DNA of 64,000 nt from Deltaproteobacteria bacterium (GTDB lineage: Bacteria > Myxococcota_A > Polyangia > Polyangiales > Houyiibacteriaceae): positions 213,985 to 277,984 of the forward strand of contig JAXMNT010000002.1 in NCBI GenBank assembly GCA_034670305.1. The letters are read 5' to 3'. The notes under the pieces are model-generated. The model was given only the letters and a program-made list of their open reading frames with translations. It was not told the DNA's origin and searched no databases. Each line of letters begins with the position of its first letter. Position 1 is the stretch's first letter. Made by a program: the position numbers and the translations under genes. Below are positions 2,953 to 64,000 of this stretch, piece by piece.

Positions 2953-3316
<364 letters not shown>

Positions 3317-6271: not shown

Positions 6272-7332
6272 GTGCCACGCAGCGGTGGCTGCTGGGCGTG
6301 TGGGTCGCGGGGGCGTTGGCGGGGTGTGGTGGGGCTGCTTCGGAAGCGGTGGCCGCGCAGGCGGAAGCCGAAGCCGAAGCGGAAGCCGAAGCCGCAGTTG
6401 AAGGCGACTCCGAAGGCGACTCCGAAGCCGACTCCGAAGGCGACTCCGAAGCCGAAGCCGAAGCCGACTCCGAAGCCGACTCCGAAGCCGAAGCCGAAGC
6501 CGAAGCCGAAGCCGAAGCCGATGCCGATGCCGACTCCGAAGCCGACTCCGATGCCGACTCCGCCGAATCCGAAGCCGGTTCCGAATCCGGCTCCGCCCTC
6601 TCCTTCTCGCTTCGGGAGGTGCAGGTGGAGCGGGGGTCGCATCGGGTGCCGGGGGATGCACCGCATGCGGTGGTGATCGAAGCGGGGGCGCCTCGGTGGA
6701 TCGTGGTCTTCTTGCACGGGTGGAGTGGGTGCGTGCGGGTGTTGGCGCATCCGGGGTTCGTGACCTGTCGACCGTCGGATCCGTCGCGGGCGCGGCGGGC
6801 GGGGTGGGATCTGCGGGGCACGTTCGAGTCCGCCGGCGTGCCAGCCGTGTTCGTACTGGCGCAGCTCTCGTTCAACCGCCGGGAGGGGGGCGCGGGGCGG
6901 TTTCTCGAAGAGGGGTTTGCGCGCGACTACTTGGCGGCGCTCGGGCTGCCGGACGATCTCCCCATCGCACTGGTCGCCCACAGCGCGGGGTTCGAGACCG
7001 CGCTGGCGTGGATTCGACGAGGCGGGCTCGACGGGCGCATTCGCTCGATTGCGCTGATGGACGCGCTCTACGCGGGGACGGAACCGTTCGCCGATTGGGT
7101 CGCCGACGACGAGGCCCGGACGCTCGTCAGCTGGCACACCGGCCGGGGCAGCACCGCCCGGCAGAACGCCCGGCTCGTGGGGCTGCTCGCGGGACGATCG
7201 GTGGCGGTGTCCGAGACCCTCGGACCAAGCCGCGCCATGGTCGCCCTCACCGAGGCCCCGCATGGGGAGGTGCCGACCGAACACCTCGTCGAGTACCTGC
7301 AATGGCTCGACGCACGCCGGGAGGCGCGCTAA
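6268..7332 (+). CDS. Lipoprotein with acidic hexamer-repeat linker and alpha/beta-hydrolase-like domain
   Basis: GTGA overlap with ptsI; lipobox LAGC; (EA/DS)n linker; VFLHGW and AHSAG nucleophile-elbow motif. Confidence 0.7.
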
Positions 7333-30711: not shown

Positions 30712-31022
30712 CGGCTTCGGCTTCGGCTTCGGCGTCGCCTTCGGCCTCGGTTTCGGCGTCGGCTTCGGCGTCGGATTCGGATTCGGATTCGGATTCGGAT
30801 TCGGCTTCGGATTCGGCGTCGGCTTCGGCTTCGGCGTCGGCTTCGGCTTCGGCTTCGGCTTCGGCTTCGGCCTCGGCGTCGGCCTCGGTTTCGGCGTCGG
30901 CTTCGGCGTCGGCGTCTGCGTCTGCGTCGGCTTCGGCGTCTTCGGCTTCGGCGTCGGCTTCGGCTTCGGCTTCGGCGTCGGCTTCGGCTTCGGCTTCCGA
31001 GTCGGAGTCGGAGTCGGCTTCG
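30712..31022 (+). repeat. (TCGGCN)n hexamer repeat
   Basis: About 310 bp of TCGGCT/TCGGCG/TCGGAT units between convergent genes. Confidence 0.9.
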
Positions 31023-31046
31023 GGCTGTCGCCGCTGGAACGGCCCC

Positions 31047-36275: not shown

Positions 36276-36300
36276 CTGGCCGCGGCTTCTGCTTTCCGTC

Positions 36301-36355
36301 GGGCACGGGCGCGGGCAGGGCAAGGGCACGGGCAAGGGCACGGGCAAGGGCACGG
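36301..36355 (+). repeat. (GGGCAC/GGGCAA)n hexamer repeat
   Basis: Stand-alone copy of the tail module of the composite repeat. Confidence 0.75.
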
Positions 36356-42064: not shown

Positions 42065-44083
<2,019 letters not shown>

Positions 44084-44281
44084 GCTGATCTCCCTGCGGG
44101 AGAAACCCCCGCGCCGGGCCGGGCTTAGCATGATACGCCGGAGATCAGCAACGATTCGGCCTCAGCCCTGTGGGATGGCTCCGGGCCCGTCGGGCCAGGG
44201 TGCTCGGGGGCGCTCGGCTGGGCCACTCTGGCCAGCGCGCTGTCGGCCCGTCCGCCTTCCGCAGAAGGACCGAACCGCGGC

Positions 44282-48239: not shown

Positions 48240-48316
48240 CCCGCGGACTCTACATCAACCCGGCGAGAGACAAAGCGCGTCGAACTTTGGTCACCCACCT
48301 GATAGGGTGGAGCCGC

Positions 48317-48808
48317 ATGACTGCCTTGCCATCGGACCTCCTCCAAGTGCACCTCGAAGAGGGAAGCGCACGACTTTCGGTCGCGTCGGAGACCTACCCT
48401 CTCGACGCGCTCTACGCAGCCGCGTTCACGTTCCTCGATCGGTGTTTCGTCCACCTCGACAAGGTGGACGAACGGTACGTTGTCACGCTGGCCCCCAAGC
48501 CAGGCAAGGATCCGGTGGACGAGTCCAACCTCCAGACCCTCGCCGGCACGTTCGCCAACGAGCTGCTGTCCGCCGCGTGGCGACAGAAGCTCACCGAGCG
48601 CAACGGGGCGACGATCGAGCTCGTGACCCGCACCGCGTTCAGTGGTGCCGCGGGGCCGCCCAGCCTCGACGACCTCGACGACTTCGACTTCTCGGAAGAG
48701 CCCTTTCACGATCCGCTCGGCATCGCCGAGAGCTGGGAAGAGAAGTACGGCAAGGACAAGACCGCCAAGCCGGAGTCCGACGACTCGGGAAGCACGGACC
48801 CCAGTTGA
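48317..48808 (+). CDS. hxsD: His-Xaa-Ser system protein HxsD-like
   Basis: YPLDALYAAAF.FLDRCFVHL...FANELL...R..L...N..I.ELV..AF recalls the HxsD pattern; next to an HxS-repeat peptide. Confidence 0.8.
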   Translation: MTALPSDLLQVHLEEGSARLSVASETYPLDALYAAAFTFLDRCFVHLDKVDERYVVTLAPKPGKDPVDESNLQTLAGTFANELLSAAWRQKLTERNGATIELVTRTAFSGAAGPPSLDDLDDFDFSEEPFHDPLGIAESWEEKYGKDKTAKPESDDSGSTDPS

Positions 48809-49014
48809 GGGAGGTCCGCTTTCACCGCGAGGTCTACGAGGGCACCTGCGTCGACTCGGCGATCGGCACCCTCGCCACCTTTGGCACCTTCGAACAGTCC
48901 GAAGATGAGACGCACTGGATCGTCCAGGTCACGGCCAAGACGCCCGCCCGAGAGCTGCGTCTGGCCCGGGAATTGGGCAATTTCGCACTCGGCTACCAGC
49001 TCAGCAAGGACTGA
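48805..49014 (+). CDS. Second, short HxsD-like protein (69 aa)
   Basis: TTG overlapping hxsD stop; F..EVY...VD.AI...ELGNFAL parallels the HxsD core. Confidence 0.65.
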   Translation: MREVRFHREVYEGTCVDSAIGTLATFGTFEQSEDETHWIVQVTAKTPARELRLARELGNFALGYQLSKD

Positions 49015-49107
49015 GCGGGACCGGCCCCAGCGGCCCACGTCCACAGGTTGGGGTCTTTCGGCCGCCGGGAGATTGTTTCCTGCCTGGTTCCGACGTAGCA
49101 TTGACCT

Positions 49108-49407
49108 GTGGCCGACGACGACGACATCCCCAGCTTCAAGCCTGAAACCCTGGTTCGCCTGACCGACCGTCAGCAACGCATCGTCGCTGAAGGCGATCCC
49201 GATGCTTTCGCGGACGGCCCGTCGTTCGATGGCAGCGGCGCGCATCTGCTCGGGCAGCACGGCAGCCACGGCTCGCATGGCAGCCACGGCTCGCACGGCA
49301 GCCACGGTTCGCACGGAAGCCACGGTTCGCACGGATCGCATGGCTCCCACGGATCGCATGGCTCCCACGGATCGCACGGCTCCCACGGTTCGCACGGCAG
49401 CTGGTAG
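49108..49407 (+). CDS. His-Xaa-Ser repeat precursor peptide, HxsA-like, (HGS)x16-W
   Basis: 50-aa acidic leader ending HLLGQ, then 16 exact HGS triplets with varied synonymous codons, then Trp-stop. Confidence 0.9.
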   Translation: MADDDDIPSFKPETLVRLTDRQQRIVAEGDPDAFADGPSFDGSGAHLLGQHGSHGSHGSHGSHGSHGSHGSHGSHGSHGSHGSHGSHGSHGSHGSHGSW

Positions 49408-49482
49408 CCGACCCTCGGCGGGCGGACGCTGAGCCGACGCCGCACCCTCGATGCCCAAGCTGACGTTTCACCCACCGGGTCG

Positions 49483-52400
49483 ATGAGCCAGGTTCTCTCC
49501 CCCACCGACATCGAGTCGTTCGTCGAGCGTGGGTACGTGGTGGTTCGCAACGCGTTCCATCGCGAAGAAGCGCTCCGCTTGGTCGAGCAGTCCTTGGTGG
49601 GGCTCGACCCACCACCGCGTGCTTCGATTCGTACCCCGACGGGCGATCGCACGATCGGCCTCGAAGACGGGTTCGTTCCCTCGGATCCCAGCACGTGGCC
49701 CGAGCCTACGCTCAACCTTCACACCCGGCGCCCGCTCCAACTTCAGCAGTTCGCCCCGCGGCTTTCCACCGCGGTCCGGCAACTCGTGGGCGACGGGTTG
49801 CTGCACCGATCGACGATTGGTCACCTCTGGAAGCTGAACGCCGACTTCGCACCGGGTCCCGCACCGCCGGTGAGCGAGAAGTGGATCCCGGACAGCTGGC
49901 ACATCGATCACCCCGGGGCGCCGACCACCTTCGAGGGGCGCACCGATGCGGTCGTGCTCTTCATGCTGTGGTCCGACATCGGCCCCTGCGGTGGGGGCAC
50001 CCGATTCCGGCCCGAGTCCATCGACCTGCTCACTGCGTCGATCGAGTCGAACGGCGCGGTCGATGTCCAGGGGGACGCATTCCGCGCAGCGCTCACGAAG
50101 GCCGGCCCGATTCAAGAAATCACCGGCCGCACGGGGGATGTCTTCGTGATGCACGGCTGGCTCTTCCACTCCGTCGCGCTCAACTACGCGCACAAGATCC
50201 GGGTGCTCGAGAACTCGATGGTCGAGACCGCGTACCCGCTGAACTACTCGCCCCACAATCCGTCTCCCTCGCCGGTCGAGCGCTGCATCATTCGTCGACG
50301 CAAGAACACGGACGACGACTACGGCGTCTTTGCCCGCACGGCCCGCGCGTTCATCGGGACGCACGCCGACCGGATGCTCGATCCTGATTCTGCGAAGGGC
50401 GCCCCACAAGAGCCGGCGCCATTGGACCGCGCGCTGCTCGCCGCCTGGGCCCATCGAACCGCGGGGGCCGTGCGACGGGTGCGCCCGCCGCGGTCCCAGC
50501 TCGTGCGCTGGGCCATCCGCACACTCCGCGACACGTTCGTCATCGGCACGTTGAGCACGCGCACGGACCCGACATTCTCAGGGCTGATGCGTGGCTCGGG
50601 CAACGTGGAGACGCGGCAGACGTTTCTGGTCGCGCTGCTCCGCGCCGCCGGACGCCAGGCCGAACTTCACCGGACCCACCACACCATTCGCATCCGCGAA
50701 GGCGACGAGTGGTTCTCCGTCGGTGGCAGCGGGGAGCTCCGACGCGAGAACACGGCGGACGAGGACTACCTGCAGCTGCCCTGGCCCGACGAGCACCCCC
50801 CGCTGGATTCGTTGACCGACGTCGATCGACCTTCGCAACCCGACCCCTGGGCCCACCTCGACCCGGACGTCGCCGAGTTCTTCGATCTGCGCTTGCAGCA
50901 CCTGGACCGGCCCGGCCGAGCGGGGCCCGCGATGTACCGAGCGCTCTGCAGCAGCAACACGGTCGGTCCGTGGGCCAGAGCGCTCTCCGGGCGCGCCCAG
51001 GCTCGGCAGCTCCACCCTCCGCCCCAATGGACGCGCGCGCTGTTTCGCGGCACACGCGTCTCAGCGGTGTGGGCGGAGGAAGTCGGCCGGGAGTTCCGCG
51101 TGTGGGTGGCGGTCAAGACGACGCGCGAACCGGTCGTGGTCTGGTTCCATAGAAAACAGGTCCACCGCGCCGGACGCGTGGTGCACGGGTTCTACGAACG
51201 CTGGGCCGCGGATCTCGAGCGCACCCGGACGCGGCTCCGATGGCTCAATGCGGTGGTCTCGGGCATGTCCGACGATCGTTACGCCGCGTCCGACGCCGAA
51301 CGCGCACTCGCGTGCATGGTGCAGTCGTTCAAGAAGCCGATCGGCGACGACGACCAAGAGCCGACGCCGACGTCGGGTTCCGATCGAGCCGTTCGCCTCT
51401 GCCGCGCGGTCCGCTCCGCGCAGTGGGCTCAGGTGTTCTCCGTGGATCCATCGGAGGAGCTTCCTGCGTGGATCCAAGTCGTGCTCTCCTTGTTGAAGGG
51501 CGACATGGACCGTGTGCGGACGATGGAAGAGCCCAGCGGGCCCGCCGCAGCGACCTCGGTGTTCGTGGGCCACATGCTCATGCAGGCAGGCTTCGACTCG
51601 GCCGCGTTCCGTTGGTTCGAGCATGGCGAACCGGCGCTTCCCAAGAACGCCCGCCGGTCGATGCTTCATCTTCGGACCCAACTGGCCCAGCGACTCGGAC
51701 GCACGGCGGAAGCCCGGACGCTCGCCCGCCACTTGGTCCTGTCGGCGGAGGGCGCCGAAGCGCTCGCCTCTGGTGCGGAGGAGTTGATCTCGCTGGGCGC
51801 GTTCGGTGACGCCACGGCCGTGCTCGAAGAGGCAGTGACACGGCACCCTGGGTCGATTCAGGTCCGCCGACTGTTCGCGCGCCTGTGCGCGTGGAGCGGC
51901 GACCTGCCCCGACTCGATGCGTTGATCAACGACCTGCCGCCGGAGCCGGCCACCCAGAAGCTCCGCGCGATCTGGCTGGCGTGCCACGAGCGGTACGAAG
52001 AAGCGCTGCACCTGTTCGAAGAGATCGTGGAGCACATCGACACCGAGGAATGCCGACTCTGGCTCGCCGAGCTCCATCTTCGCGTGGGCCACCCCCCCAA
52101 GCGCGCGCACTACGAACTCGAGCGTTCCCGGCTGCGCTCTCAGAATGCGGCCCACTTGATGCTCGCCGTGTGGATCGACGATGCCAACTGGGGACCGAAG
52201 TTGCTGTCCTGGTACGACTACCTCGATGGAACACCTCCCCGGCCAACCGAGGAGAAGGATCTCGAGCGCTCGCGGGTGTTCTGTCGAGAAGCGCTCCGGT
52301 GGTTCCGCGGCAACCGAACCGACCGGCTGACCCGCGTGCTGCCTGCGAGTTCGACGTCCCCACGAGACCTCTCGTACGTAGAGCCTCCGGAAGAAGACAG

Positions 52401-53178
52401 TGTGCTCTCGAGCCGCAACGCGTCCGCCAACGCGGTGCGGTCGGTCGCCACCCGCCCCATCGCCGAGGCACAACAGACGCTTGCAGCGCTGGCCGAGCGT
52501 TACCCCAAGTCTCCCCACCCCCTCTGCTACGGGGGAGAACTCAAACTCTGGCTCGGCGACCTCGACGGCGCGTTCGCAGATTTCGAGACCGCCATGGGCC
52601 GTGGCAACACCCGGTGGGCCTACGTCGGGAAGGCCGCGGTGCACTCGCTCCGCGGCGAACTCGAAGCCGCGATCTCGGAGTTCACCCAGTGCGCGCGAAA
52701 CCACGAAGCGGTGCTCGGCGCCACGACCCATGTGTACCGGGGCGAACTGTTCCGTCGGAACGGAGATCACGACCGGGCGATCGAAGACCTTCGCTCGGCC
52801 GTGGGCTCCAAGCCCGGGCGGGTCGCCGCATGGATGAACCTCGCGCTCTCGCTGGATGCGACGGGCGAGTCGGCCGAGGCGGGCGCGATCTTCGACAAGC
52901 TCAAGGCGTGGGTGCCGAGACTCTTGTGGGATGTCCGCGCGAGCTTGGACCCGGAGTTGCCCTGGCCACTGCCACCGGACTCGATGCGGCCCCTGTTCGA
53001 ACACGCCCTGGTCATGATGCGCGGCAACCGTTCGAGTCACCTGGTGACATATTTCACGGCGGACGGCGCCTTCCGCGTGACGCAAGACGCGCAGCAATGG
53101 GCCGACCGGGTGAAGAAGCACGACGCGTTGATCCTCCATGTGCTGACCGAGCAACTGAACCGCGCCGAACGCTGGTAG
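49483..53178 (+). CDS. PhyH-type Fe(II)/2OG dioxygenase - transglutaminase-like - TPR fusion (1231 aa)
   Basis: F.ERGYVVVRNAF; WHID (H140, D142); GDVFVMH.WLFH (H229); R240; LVALLRAAG segment; C-terminal TPRs. Confidence 0.8.
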   Translation: MSQVLSPTDIESFVERGYVVVRNAFHREEALRLVEQSLVGLDPPPRASIRTPTGDRTIGLEDGFVPSDPSTWPEPTLNLHTRRPLQLQQFAPRLSTAVRQLVGDGLLHRSTIGHLWKLNADFAPGPAPPVSEKWIPDSWHIDHPGAPTTFEGRTDAVVLFMLWSDIGPCGGGTRFRPESIDLLTASIESNGAVDVQGDAFRAALTKAGPIQEITGRTGDVFVMHGWLFHSVALNYAHKIRVLENSMVETAYPLNYSPHNPSPSPVERCIIRRRKNTDDDYGVFARTARAFIGTHADRMLDPDSAKGAPQEPAPLDRALLAAWAHRTAGAVRRVRPPRSQLVRWAIRTLRDTFVIGTLSTRTDPTFSGLMRGSGNVETRQTFLVALLRAAGRQAELHRTHHTIRIREGDEWFSVGGSGELRRENTADEDYLQLPWPDEHPPLDSLTDVDRPSQPDPWAHLDPDVAEFFDLRLQHLDRPGRAGPAMYRALCSSNTVGPWARALSGRAQARQLHPPPQWTRALFRGTRVSAVWAEEVGREFRVWVAVKTTREPVVVWFHRKQVHRAGRVVHGFYERWAADLERTRTRLRWLNAVVSGMSDDRYAASDAERALACMVQSFKKPIGDDDQEPTPTSGSDRAVRLCRAVRSAQWAQVFSVDPSEELPAWIQVVLSLLKGDMDRVRTMEEPSGPAAATSVFVGHMLMQAGFDSAAFRWFEHGEPALPKNARRSMLHLRTQLAQRLGRTAEARTLARHLVLSAEGAEALASGAEELISLGAFGDATAVLEEAVTRHPGSIQVRRLFARLCAWSGDLPRLDALINDLPPEPATQKLRAIWLACHERYEEALHLFEEIVEHIDTEECRLWLAELHLRVGHPPKRAHYELERSRLRSQNAAHLMLAVWIDDANWGPKLLSWYDYLDGTPPRPTEEKDLERSRVFCREALRWFRGNRTDRLTRVLPASSTSPRDLSYVEPPEEDSVLSSRNASANAVRSVATRPIAEAQQTLAALAERYPKSPHPLCYGGELKLWLGDLDGAFADFETAMGRGNTRWAYVGKAAVHSLRGELEAAISEFTQCARNHEAVLGATTHVYRGELFRRNGDHDRAIEDLRSAVGSKPGRVAAWMNLALSLDATGESAEAGAIFDKLKAWVPRLLWDVRASLDPELPWPLPPDSMRPLFEHALVMMRGNRSSHLVTYFTADGAFRVTQDAQQWADRVKKHDALILHVLTEQLNRAERW

Positions 53179-63607: not shown

Positions 63608-63880
63608 GGCATCGGCGTCGGCGGCGGCTTCGGCGTCGGCGTCGGCTTCGGCGTCGGCTTCGGCTTCGGCGTCGGTTTCGGCTTCGGCTTCGGCTTCGGA
63701 TTCGGATTCGGCGTCGGCGTCGGCGTCGGCGTCGGCTTCGGCGTCGGCTTCGGATTCGGCTTCGGCTTCGGCTTCGGCTTCGGATTCGGATTCGGATTCG
63801 GTTTCGGCTCCCGAACCAAGGGCAAGGGCAACGGCACGGGCAAGGGCACGGGCAAGGGCACGGGCACGGGCAGGGGCAAG
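63608..63880 (+). repeat. Composite hexamer repeat (TCGGCN)n + (GGGCAM)n
   Basis: Same architecture as 1415-1686, including a GAACCA spacer. Confidence 0.9.
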
Positions 63881-64000
63881 GACCTCCTACCGTCCGTCAA
63901 GCCCTCTTGAGGGTCAGATCGGCTTTGGGAGGCGACGCTGGGTTTTGTCGTAGAGACGGCGATCTCGAAGGGCTGCGACGAGTACAGCGAGCATCCGATC
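63879..64000 (-). mobile_element. Probable right end of an IS110-family element (transposase C-terminus 63914-64000)
   Basis: Minus frame DRMLAVLVAALRDRRLYDKTQRRLPKPI-stop resembles IS110 C-termini; followed by TTGACG and a CT dinucleotide at the repeat junction. Confidence 0.5.

Follow-up and report, generated by a model that had tools for sequence, protein, structure and literature searches.

The question raised by this locus is whether a short open reading frame (ORF) encoding sixteen identical His-Gly-Ser (HGS) triplets is a gene at all and, if so, to which system its product belongs. The ORF lies in a 64,000-nt stretch of DNA (called, at its full length, the window) of contig JAXMNT010000002.1, C2 for short, in the Deltaproteobacteria bacterium assembly GCA_034670305.1 (Myxococcota_A, Polyangiales); the host genome comprises 7.9 Mb in 105 contigs, with 68% G+C. 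The ORF at 49108-49407 is a real, selected gene. To judge by its predicted product, it is a divergent member of the catalogued HxsA4 family rather than an element of a new kind. With hxsD and hxsD-like genes of its own, it probably forms a satellite module, devoid of maturase genes, of the type 4 Hxs radical S-adenosylmethionine (SAM) system of Myxococcota, in which HxsA4 would be the leader-(HGS)n-Trp substrate or effector; we favour this explanation with some reserve.

The reading frame and its family

The features of the locus are collected in Table 1. The first-pass annotation, made from the letters and the translated frames, had described a perfect run of sixteen HGS triplets closed by a single Trp and written in mixed codons, including both Ser codon blocks. 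This description stands: all 16 triplets, the TGG and the TAG are in place, and the codon counts agree with it exactly (His CAC 13, CAT 3; Gly GGC 9, GGA 4, GGT 3; Ser TCG 8, AGC 5, TCC 3). The 16 units represent 8 distinct 9-mers, and the variation among them is entirely synonymous, with no amino-acid change. The GTG codon at 49108 is the earliest possible start, located behind the in-frame stops TAG (49096-49098) and TGA (49102-49104). The G+C content at the three codon positions is 0.71, 0.55 and 0.78 for the whole ORF and 0.78, 0.44 and 0.76 for the leader alone; strand and frame are supported by these values and by the synonymous-only differences from a close relative described below.

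The peptide has no signal peptide or anchor, its largest 15-residue hydropathy being 0.15, and the core, containing neither Lys nor Arg, is uncharged at neutral pH (isoelectric point, pI, 7.48), with 16 His residues at a spacing of three. In the peptide-gene region, scans for Rfam families and tRNAs yielded nothing, and no RNA run was listed as holding window positions 48250-50250, which has no bearing on transcription. Exact look-up of this peptide as translated, and of two related ones discussed below (from contig C3 of the host and from Plesiocystis), in the protein collection gave no match, possibly due to the choice of start codons.

Table 1. Features of the peptide locus, in window coordinates
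Feature	Position	Strand	Remarks
hxsD, long form	48317-48808	+	163 aa; HxsD-type domain, then conserved acidic C-terminal tail
HxsD-like gene	48805-49014	+	69 aa; NF038315 HxsD_rel 52.2 bits, cut-off 41
Spacer	49015-49107	.	93 bases, between the HxsD-like gene and the peptide gene
hxsA4-like gene	49108-49407	+	99 codons and stop; NF038313 75.9 bits, cut-off 55
Leader	49108-49257	+	50 aa; acidic, pI 4.07; no hydrophobic segment, no Cys
Core (His-Gly-Ser)16	49258-49401	+	16 of 16 HGS codon triplets; higher-order period 18 bases
C-terminal Trp codon and stop	49402-49407	+	TGG at 49402-49404, then TAG
PhyH-like/TPR protein gene	49483-53178	+	1231 aa; PhyH-like (Fe/2-oxoglutarate oxygenase-like) N-terminus, C-terminal TPR; 75 bases past the peptide stop

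Selection on the locus becomes visible in the comparison with X5, a sequencing run labelled marine metagenome (the window itself is present whole in four runs of one study, which may be its source, and X5 is from a second study). A 736-base X5 contig (record 8) covers positions 48572-49286, ending inside the repeat, and is about 95% identical to the window, with 36 differences and 10 gap letters. Among the 32 differences that are listed, 21 of the 22 coding ones are synonymous (all 9 in hxsD, 9 of 10 in the HxsD-like gene and all 3 in the leader), while the spacer has 10 listed substitutions and 10 inserted letters, far above the level of the flanking coding DNA. This contrast between coding DNA and spacer indicates purifying selection on all three genes and argues against a decaying copy. 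Further, X5 contigs are about 92-95% identical to the window over 48572-49286 and over 49497-50086, the latter being part of the PhyH-like gene, with none of them bridging the repeat; thus a close relative of the host organism exists elsewhere.

The possibility that there is no gene here, and that a frame happens to be open over a 9/18-base microsatellite in GC-rich DNA, could draw on the 66 Tandem Repeats Finder rows in the window and on the 107 ORFs of at least 40 aa found in 12 kb. It is hardly credible: dozens of genomes share the frame, the leader motifs, the terminal Trp and the gene neighbours, the differences from the X5 relative fall at third codon positions, and 6 bases is the unit length of the window's other microsatellites.

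As to the family, the peptide passes the curated cut-off of NF038313, "His-Xaa-Ser repeat protein HxsA4" (Table 1). Its leader was aligned with those of 34 other peptides (alignment A2, 35 HxsA4 leaders) and keeps Pro8 (in I-P-S-F) and Leu18, both invariant in the family, as well as the Q-R motif. Homologues of the leader, which the first-pass annotation had expected, were found only through genomic context, a search with the leader alone giving none at E <= 0.01. The model score, the HGS array with its terminal Trp, and a homologous leader accompanied by an HxsD pair are the HxsA4 features observed in the peptide. A further common feature, HCS as the first unit, is missing from it, as it is from 9 of 53 relatives: the first unit here is HGS (CAC GGC AGC), one base away from the usual Cys codon (TGC to GGC). 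The leader also lacks the "S-x-R-A ... N-A-D-E" stretch typical of most HxsA4 members and is the most divergent one in A2, with 27-48% identity even when the shared repeat units are included.

HGS arrays in relatives and the growth of the repeat

The HxsA4 model was searched in 40 relatives, that is, in 41 genomes with the host. A match to NF038313 at E <= 1e-4 was found in 21 of the 41, the host among them, and 14 exceeded the cut-off. Moreover, a scan with an HxsD alignment, one genome per species, provided loci from 210 relatives, the best 80 of which were analysed, their genes being assigned by blastp against the proteins of the host genome with fixed score thresholds. By record title, these loci belong to Myxococcota or to unclassified "delta proteobacteria", with the exception of three titled only (uncultured) proteobacteria; the named groups are Polyangiales, Sandaracinaceae, Nannocystaceae, Archangium, Kofleriaceae, Plesiocystis pacifica SIR-1 and Polyangium jinanense. 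Of the 80 loci, 73 contain HxsB, 72 an HxsD-like gene, 57 an HxS array and 31 HxsC4, and the genes usually stand in the order D, d, B, A4, C4 (d being the HxsD-like gene).

The arrays are complete in 53 of the 57 cases; the pattern required an array uninterrupted up to the C-terminus, so that interrupted ones are counted from the interruption onward. Each of the 53 complete arrays ends in Trp, and HGS makes up all 705 units that follow the first one; the latter is HCS in 44 arrays, HGS in four, HAS in three, and HWS and HVS in one each. Mixed 9-mers are found in 52 arrays and both Ser codon blocks in 45. The arrays have between 5 and 53 units (median 14), and at least 16 in 15 cases. According to this survey, perfect cores with synonymous scatter and a closing Trp characterize the family as a whole, and a length of 16 units is ordinary. 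Plesiocystis pacifica SIR-1 (locus L136) has a Cys-less (HGS)16-W peptide too, next to D, d and B. The longest arrays, with 53 HxS units in a metagenome-assembled genome (MAG) of Myxococcaceae (L155, 7284-7979) and 26 in a Polyangiales MAG (L173, 4175-4651), have HGS in all non-first units and keep the terminal Trp.

Two statements of the first-pass annotation on the core need to be revised in view of these data. It had called the core unusually long and invariant, while perfect HGS units followed by Trp turn out to be the rule of the family and at least 16 units occur in 15 of 53 arrays. The variable Xaa that it gave for HxsA cores is correct for classical HxsA and many non-myxobacterial relatives, but not for the myxobacterial branch, with HGS in all later units. 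Indeed, the database relatives from outside Myxococcota (Omnitrophota, Elusimicrobiota and others) mostly have variable Xaa and a hydrophobic leader segment; two of them are named HxsA4 by NCBI.

A short bacterial collagen-like protein, with (Gly-Ser-His)16 as a Gly-X-Y triple helix, would be another way to explain a conserved triplet repeat. The Pfam Collagen model PF01391 does score 36.8 bits on the peptide (cut-off 27.2), some database relatives are labelled Collagen, and there are weak matches to the Scl1/Scl2 adhesin models. The latter reach only 28-30 bits against cut-offs of 325-400, the triplets contain no Pro and no charged residue, the repeat is only 48 residues long, and neither a signal peptide nor an anchor is present. 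As the leader, the terminal Trp and the HxsD/HxsB/HxsC4 context all fit a maturase substrate, we read the PF01391 score as driven by composition and consider a collagen-like protein highly improbable.

At the DNA level, the array has a structure of its own. Its period, according to Tandem Repeats Finder, is 18 bases, with 7.3 copies and 90% matches, and units two apart are 88.9% identical, compared to 65.2% for neighbours, a contrast reached by 3 of 20,000 shuffles of the unit order. In units 1-8 the Ser codons AGC and TCG alternate, and in units 9-15 the alternation is between CAC-GGA-TCG and CAT-GGC-TCC. The two-unit periodicity implies that the array grew through duplication of two-unit blocks and, combined with the range of 5 to 53 units in relatives, that expansion and contraction at the DNA level does occur. 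The first-pass annotation had stated that the core is maintained at the protein level, under purifying selection, and not by DNA slippage. The second half of this statement is contradicted by the 18-base periodicity and the variable unit count, while the first half is borne out, since the variation in the window is synonymous only and none of the 705 non-first units in relatives departs from HGS. Judging from these patterns, it is duplication that built the array and selection that kept each unit His-Gly-Ser. Array length would thus be set by the duplication and loss of 9- and 18-base units, selection would remove all non-HGS variants, and the mixed synonymous codons may damp further slippage.

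The window is also rich in hexanucleotide arrays (1415-1638, 2979-3316, 6364-6595, 30712-31023, 36300-36355 and 63608-63881), for example GGCTTC x37, CGGCTT x51 and GCCGAC x33. They are sited between genes or at gene ends.

The hxsD pair, the rest of the system and the downstream neighbour

The HxsD of the window is 46-60% identical to 42 Myxococcota HxsD-long proteins (alignment A4). Its gene probably starts at ATG 48317, which, as read from the sequence, stands behind GGGTGGAG. The TTG start of the HxsD-like gene overlaps the stop codon of hxsD by 4 bases (TTGA), suggesting translational coupling of the two genes; a D-d pair with the identical overlap precedes HxsB on contig C55 of the host genome. 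A scan of the region revealed no sigma-70-like promoter, nor any terminator-like site on the + strand.

The AlphaFold model of HxsD-long (mean predicted local distance difference test, pLDDT, 82.1) is confident for a beta-beta-alpha-beta-beta-alpha-alpha domain and poor for the acidic tail. A Foldseek search of this model against PDB produced nothing at E <= 0.001 (best 7.3e-3). A wide VIA-align search was uninformative: the best match, with Z 7.3, is the aIF2 alpha C-terminal domain (root-mean-square deviation 2.3 over 71 residues), and the matches include many unrelated alpha/beta sandwiches. The tail (residues 113-146, window positions 48653-48754), located outside the 90-position TIGR03976 model, has a consensus of roughly G-P-P-S-L-D-x-L-x-x-F-D-F ... 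D-P-L-G-I-A-x-S-W-E-x-K-Y, with many invariant positions across 43 sequences and a pLDDT of about 50-75. It looks like a docking motif for a partner.

The remaining components of the system are encoded elsewhere in the host genome. Contig C3 carries a canonical HxsA4 (HCS, 12 HGS units and W; 91 bits over the whole profile) with HxsC4 directly after it (NF038332, 568 bits at a cut-off of 500), and on contig C55 a second pair of HxsD and HxsD-like genes is followed by HxsB (TIGR03978, 519 bits at a cut-off of 370); all of these frames are open. Hence, there are one HxsB, one HxsC4 and two HxsA4 precursors in the genome. As the window contig has no HxsB- or HxsC-like match, D, d and A constitute a satellite module without maturases. 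Among relatives, HxsB accompanies 54 of the 57 array-bearing loci and is absent nearby, as in the window, from the remaining three (L094, L102 and L103). In the genome of L094 (G028) it is found on another contig (543 bits), which means that splitting of the system over several loci recurs.

The neighbourhood of the canonical gene on C3 (locus L015; G000 contig C3, 234000-253000) contains no fewer than three other genes for radical-SAM proteins (634 aa, 320 aa and a 1075-aa ORF), as well as Cys-rich proteins of 58 and 530 aa. Proteins 60-67% identical to the 58-aa one are encoded in L085 and L091, and those 45-48% identical to the 530-aa one in L088 and L091, in each case near HxsA4.

The nearest relative of the peptide itself is encoded in L103. 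It consists of a similar short leader, HWS, 13 HGS units and W, has no Cys, and follows HxsD, with no HxsB adjacent. In a quick maximum-likelihood tree of 43 HxsD proteins, the HxsD of the window and that of L103 are sisters, both on long branches, with a Shimodaira-Hasegawa-like approximate likelihood ratio test (SH-aLRT) value of 92, below the 95 mark; the other HxsD of the host genome falls in a different subclade.

This second copy, standing in a genome with a canonical system, could in principle be a decaying leftover of a duplicated hxsD-hxsD-like-hxsA4 segment, open yet unused. Its leader is the most divergent of the alignment, its Cys was lost via a single base change, and the branch of its HxsD is long (0.65). 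We find decay quite improbable, however, since the three frames are intact, the 16 units are perfect, 21 of the 22 listed coding differences from X5 are synonymous next to a heavily changed spacer, and an equally divergent sister module, that of L103, exists in another genome.

Several observations weigh against regarding the locus as a satellite of the type 4 system. In a six-frame search of the genome only NF038313 positions 44-93 align, as two pieces of 41 bits (70.7 bits summed); since this is the repeat half of the profile alone, part of the family score comes from low-complexity sequence. The leader has Gly in place of an Ala present in at least 90% of the A2 sequences, and a search of 5.8 billion proteins with the leader only (residues 1-52) returned one candidate and none at E <= 0.01. 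The HxsD of the window scores 48.0 bits against TIGR03976, marginally below the cut-off of 50. The peptide gene has no radical-SAM gene beside it, and the HxsB and HxsC models detected none on contig C2 at E <= 0.01. Finally, the array opens with HGS instead of the HCS of 44 of 53 relatives, and if the Cys or the altered leader positions are needed by the maturases, the window copy may escape them.

This leads to the alternative that the gene is real and its product not made by radical-SAM enzymes, being either an unmodified His-rich binder of metal or polyanions or a peptide modified by the PhyH-like/TPR protein, for instance by hydroxylation of His or Ser. The PhyH-like/TPR gene follows the peptide gene closely on the same strand, with no terminator-like site in between (Table 1), and the spacing of the His residues and the neutrality of the core would suit such a product, as would the lost Cys, the divergent leader and the missing radical-SAM neighbour. 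In addition, in one other genome (L151, 1-1458, identical to L069; G017 contig C210), found by tblastn against all loci, a TPR gene lies directly upstream of hxsD-hxsD-like-hxsB; it is 36% identical to residues ~1000-1214 of the 1231-aa protein and is cut by the contig end, so that its N-terminus is missing.

The assignment of the neighbour as an oxygenase is itself weak, since the match to Pfam PhyH, at 19.6 bits, falls short of the cut-off of 22; several TPR models are above theirs. Genes 26-31% identical to its N-terminal 400 aa occur in 5 of the 40 relatives, in none of them near Hxs genes: in G012 the distance is about 70 kb, in G013 it is about 505 kb from a lone sub-threshold HxsA4 match, and the others are on Hxs-free contigs. 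In these relatives a gene resembling the TPR part precedes the PhyH-like gene, independently of Hxs. The sister module in L103 has no such neighbour. Moreover, both HxsD-type genes are kept under purifying selection, and the HxsD of E. coli works with radical-SAM enzymes (PMC13128918). The Cys is also absent from 9 of the 53 arrays, 7 of which (all but L103 and L116) are still beside HxsB. We therefore regard a functional link of the PhyH-like/TPR gene with the peptide system as unlikely, and a product made without radical-SAM enzymes as unlikely too but not negligible. A more specific version is clearly improbable, namely that the D-d-A module and L103 represent a satellite class of Cys-less HxsA4 with HxsD chaperones of its own, bypassing HxsB and HxsC4, in which the PhyH-like/TPR enzyme hydroxylates His or Ser to give a poly-His metal-binding product. 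If true, it would be a maturation route undescribed for any His-Xaa-Ser peptide.

Under the favoured explanation, a divergent HxsA4 with its own hxsD pair as a satellite of the type 4 system, HxsD and the HxsD-like protein would hold the acidic leader and present the HGS core in trans to HxsB (from C55) and HxsC4 (from C3), which would introduce covalent changes at His and/or Ser residues in the repeats; removal of the leader would then leave a His-rich modified peptide. This mechanism is proposed by analogy with the E. coli HXS system, in which HxsB, HxsC and HxsD are all needed, and it is from this analogy that we infer that HxsD binds the peptide and that maturation proceeds in trans, as well as the chemistry and the product's role. 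Metal binding by the 16 His residues spaced every third position, suggested by the first-pass annotation, is reasonable as a putative function. PADLOC had no match for the four window proteins or for a 206-aa neighbour, and indicated only a generic viperin-like radical-SAM similarity for HxsB and HxsC4.

The known picture is not changed by this locus: the family is catalogued, and its members normally have a perfect repeat. The locus varies modestly from other members, by its satellite arrangement, its lost Cys and its odd neighbour, and these variations could serve in experiments on Hxs chemistry. HxsA4 peptides are the simplest substrates of related enzymes, with a short leader and identical HGS units, and this simplicity makes them attractive for working out how HxsB- and HxsC-type enzymes act on His-Xaa-Ser. 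The host genome is a natural experiment in this respect, as its two precursors differ in their leaders and in whether the first unit contains Cys, and each goes with an HxsD pair.

Elsewhere in the window, a 688-aa ORF on the - strand (42065-44131) contains about five repeats of 99-108 bases encoding Asp-rich units of the D-x-D-x-D-G type; its C-terminal end is OmpA-like by reading of the translation.

Comparison with known systems

We found no literature on HxsA4 or on myxobacterial HGS-repeat peptides; the HxsA survey tables supplementing PMC13128918 may include members. The literature found on Hxs genes, as judged by titles, consists of the 2026 HXS paper and its preprint, a passing mention in a 2022 article of the Journal of Biological Chemistry (PMC9062424) and a Pseudomonas genome paper, and of no other item.

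The classical HXS system, as described by Li et al. (Nat Commun 2026, PMC13128918), blocks phage DNA entry. Its genes are arranged as HxsD-HxsB-HxsC-HxsA in E. coli, Klebsiella and Pseudomonas, and 99.7% of the systems surveyed there are in Pseudomonadota. In E. coli, HxsB, HxsC and HxsD are each needed for processing of HxsA, and HxsC pulls down HxsD; a change of +8 Da maps to the SHRSS motif in the last HxS repeat of HxsA, and its chemistry is unsolved (PMC13128918). The E. coli HxsA is a periplasmic DNA-binding effector in which a signal peptide and a peptidoglycan-binding domain are combined with about five basic HxS repeats (PMC13128918). The host genome resembles this system in having His-Xaa-Ser repeats, HxsB- and HxsC-type radical-SAM enzymes and a small HxsD-type protein, whereas the window peptide differs from the E. 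coli HxsA so described in being 99 aa long, in lacking a signal peptide or any other domain, and in having 16 neutral HGS units. A reading of the peptide as classical HxsA was rejected, as it gave no match to TIGR03979 at E <= 0.1, has no hydrophobic segment and has no Lys or Arg in the core.

Triceptides are RiPPs, peptides that are made by ribosomes and modified post-translationally, with three-residue cyclophanes on aromatic-X-X motifs, His motifs being processed by HaaB, HtkB and YhhB, with known cross-links from His C2 to C-beta (PMC11499958, whose text has 0 occurrences of Hxs). With the triceptides described there, the peptide shares the combination of a leader, repeated His-X-X motifs (H-G-S x 16) and an association with radical-SAM/SPASM enzymes. 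The maturases here are HxsB and HxsC4, in contrast, and the host HxsB scores only 38.1 bits on XyeB (cut-off 450) and 46.8 bits on YhhB (cut-off 445).

The closest agreement is with the type 4 Hxs loci of Myxococcota (NF038313, TIGR03976, NF038315, TIGR03978, NF038332). As in these loci, the acidic leader has the pattern (L/I)-P-x-F ... L ... Q-R, the HGS core is uninterrupted and ends in a single C-terminal Trp, and hxsD and the hxsD-like gene are directly upstream; with the Plesiocystis pacifica SIR-1 peptide it shares both the 16 units and the absence of Cys. Unlike them, the window has no adjacent HxsB or HxsC4, both of which are intact elsewhere in the genome, and it has the downstream PhyH-like/TPR gene, which is absent beside the others save for the one TPR-only case.

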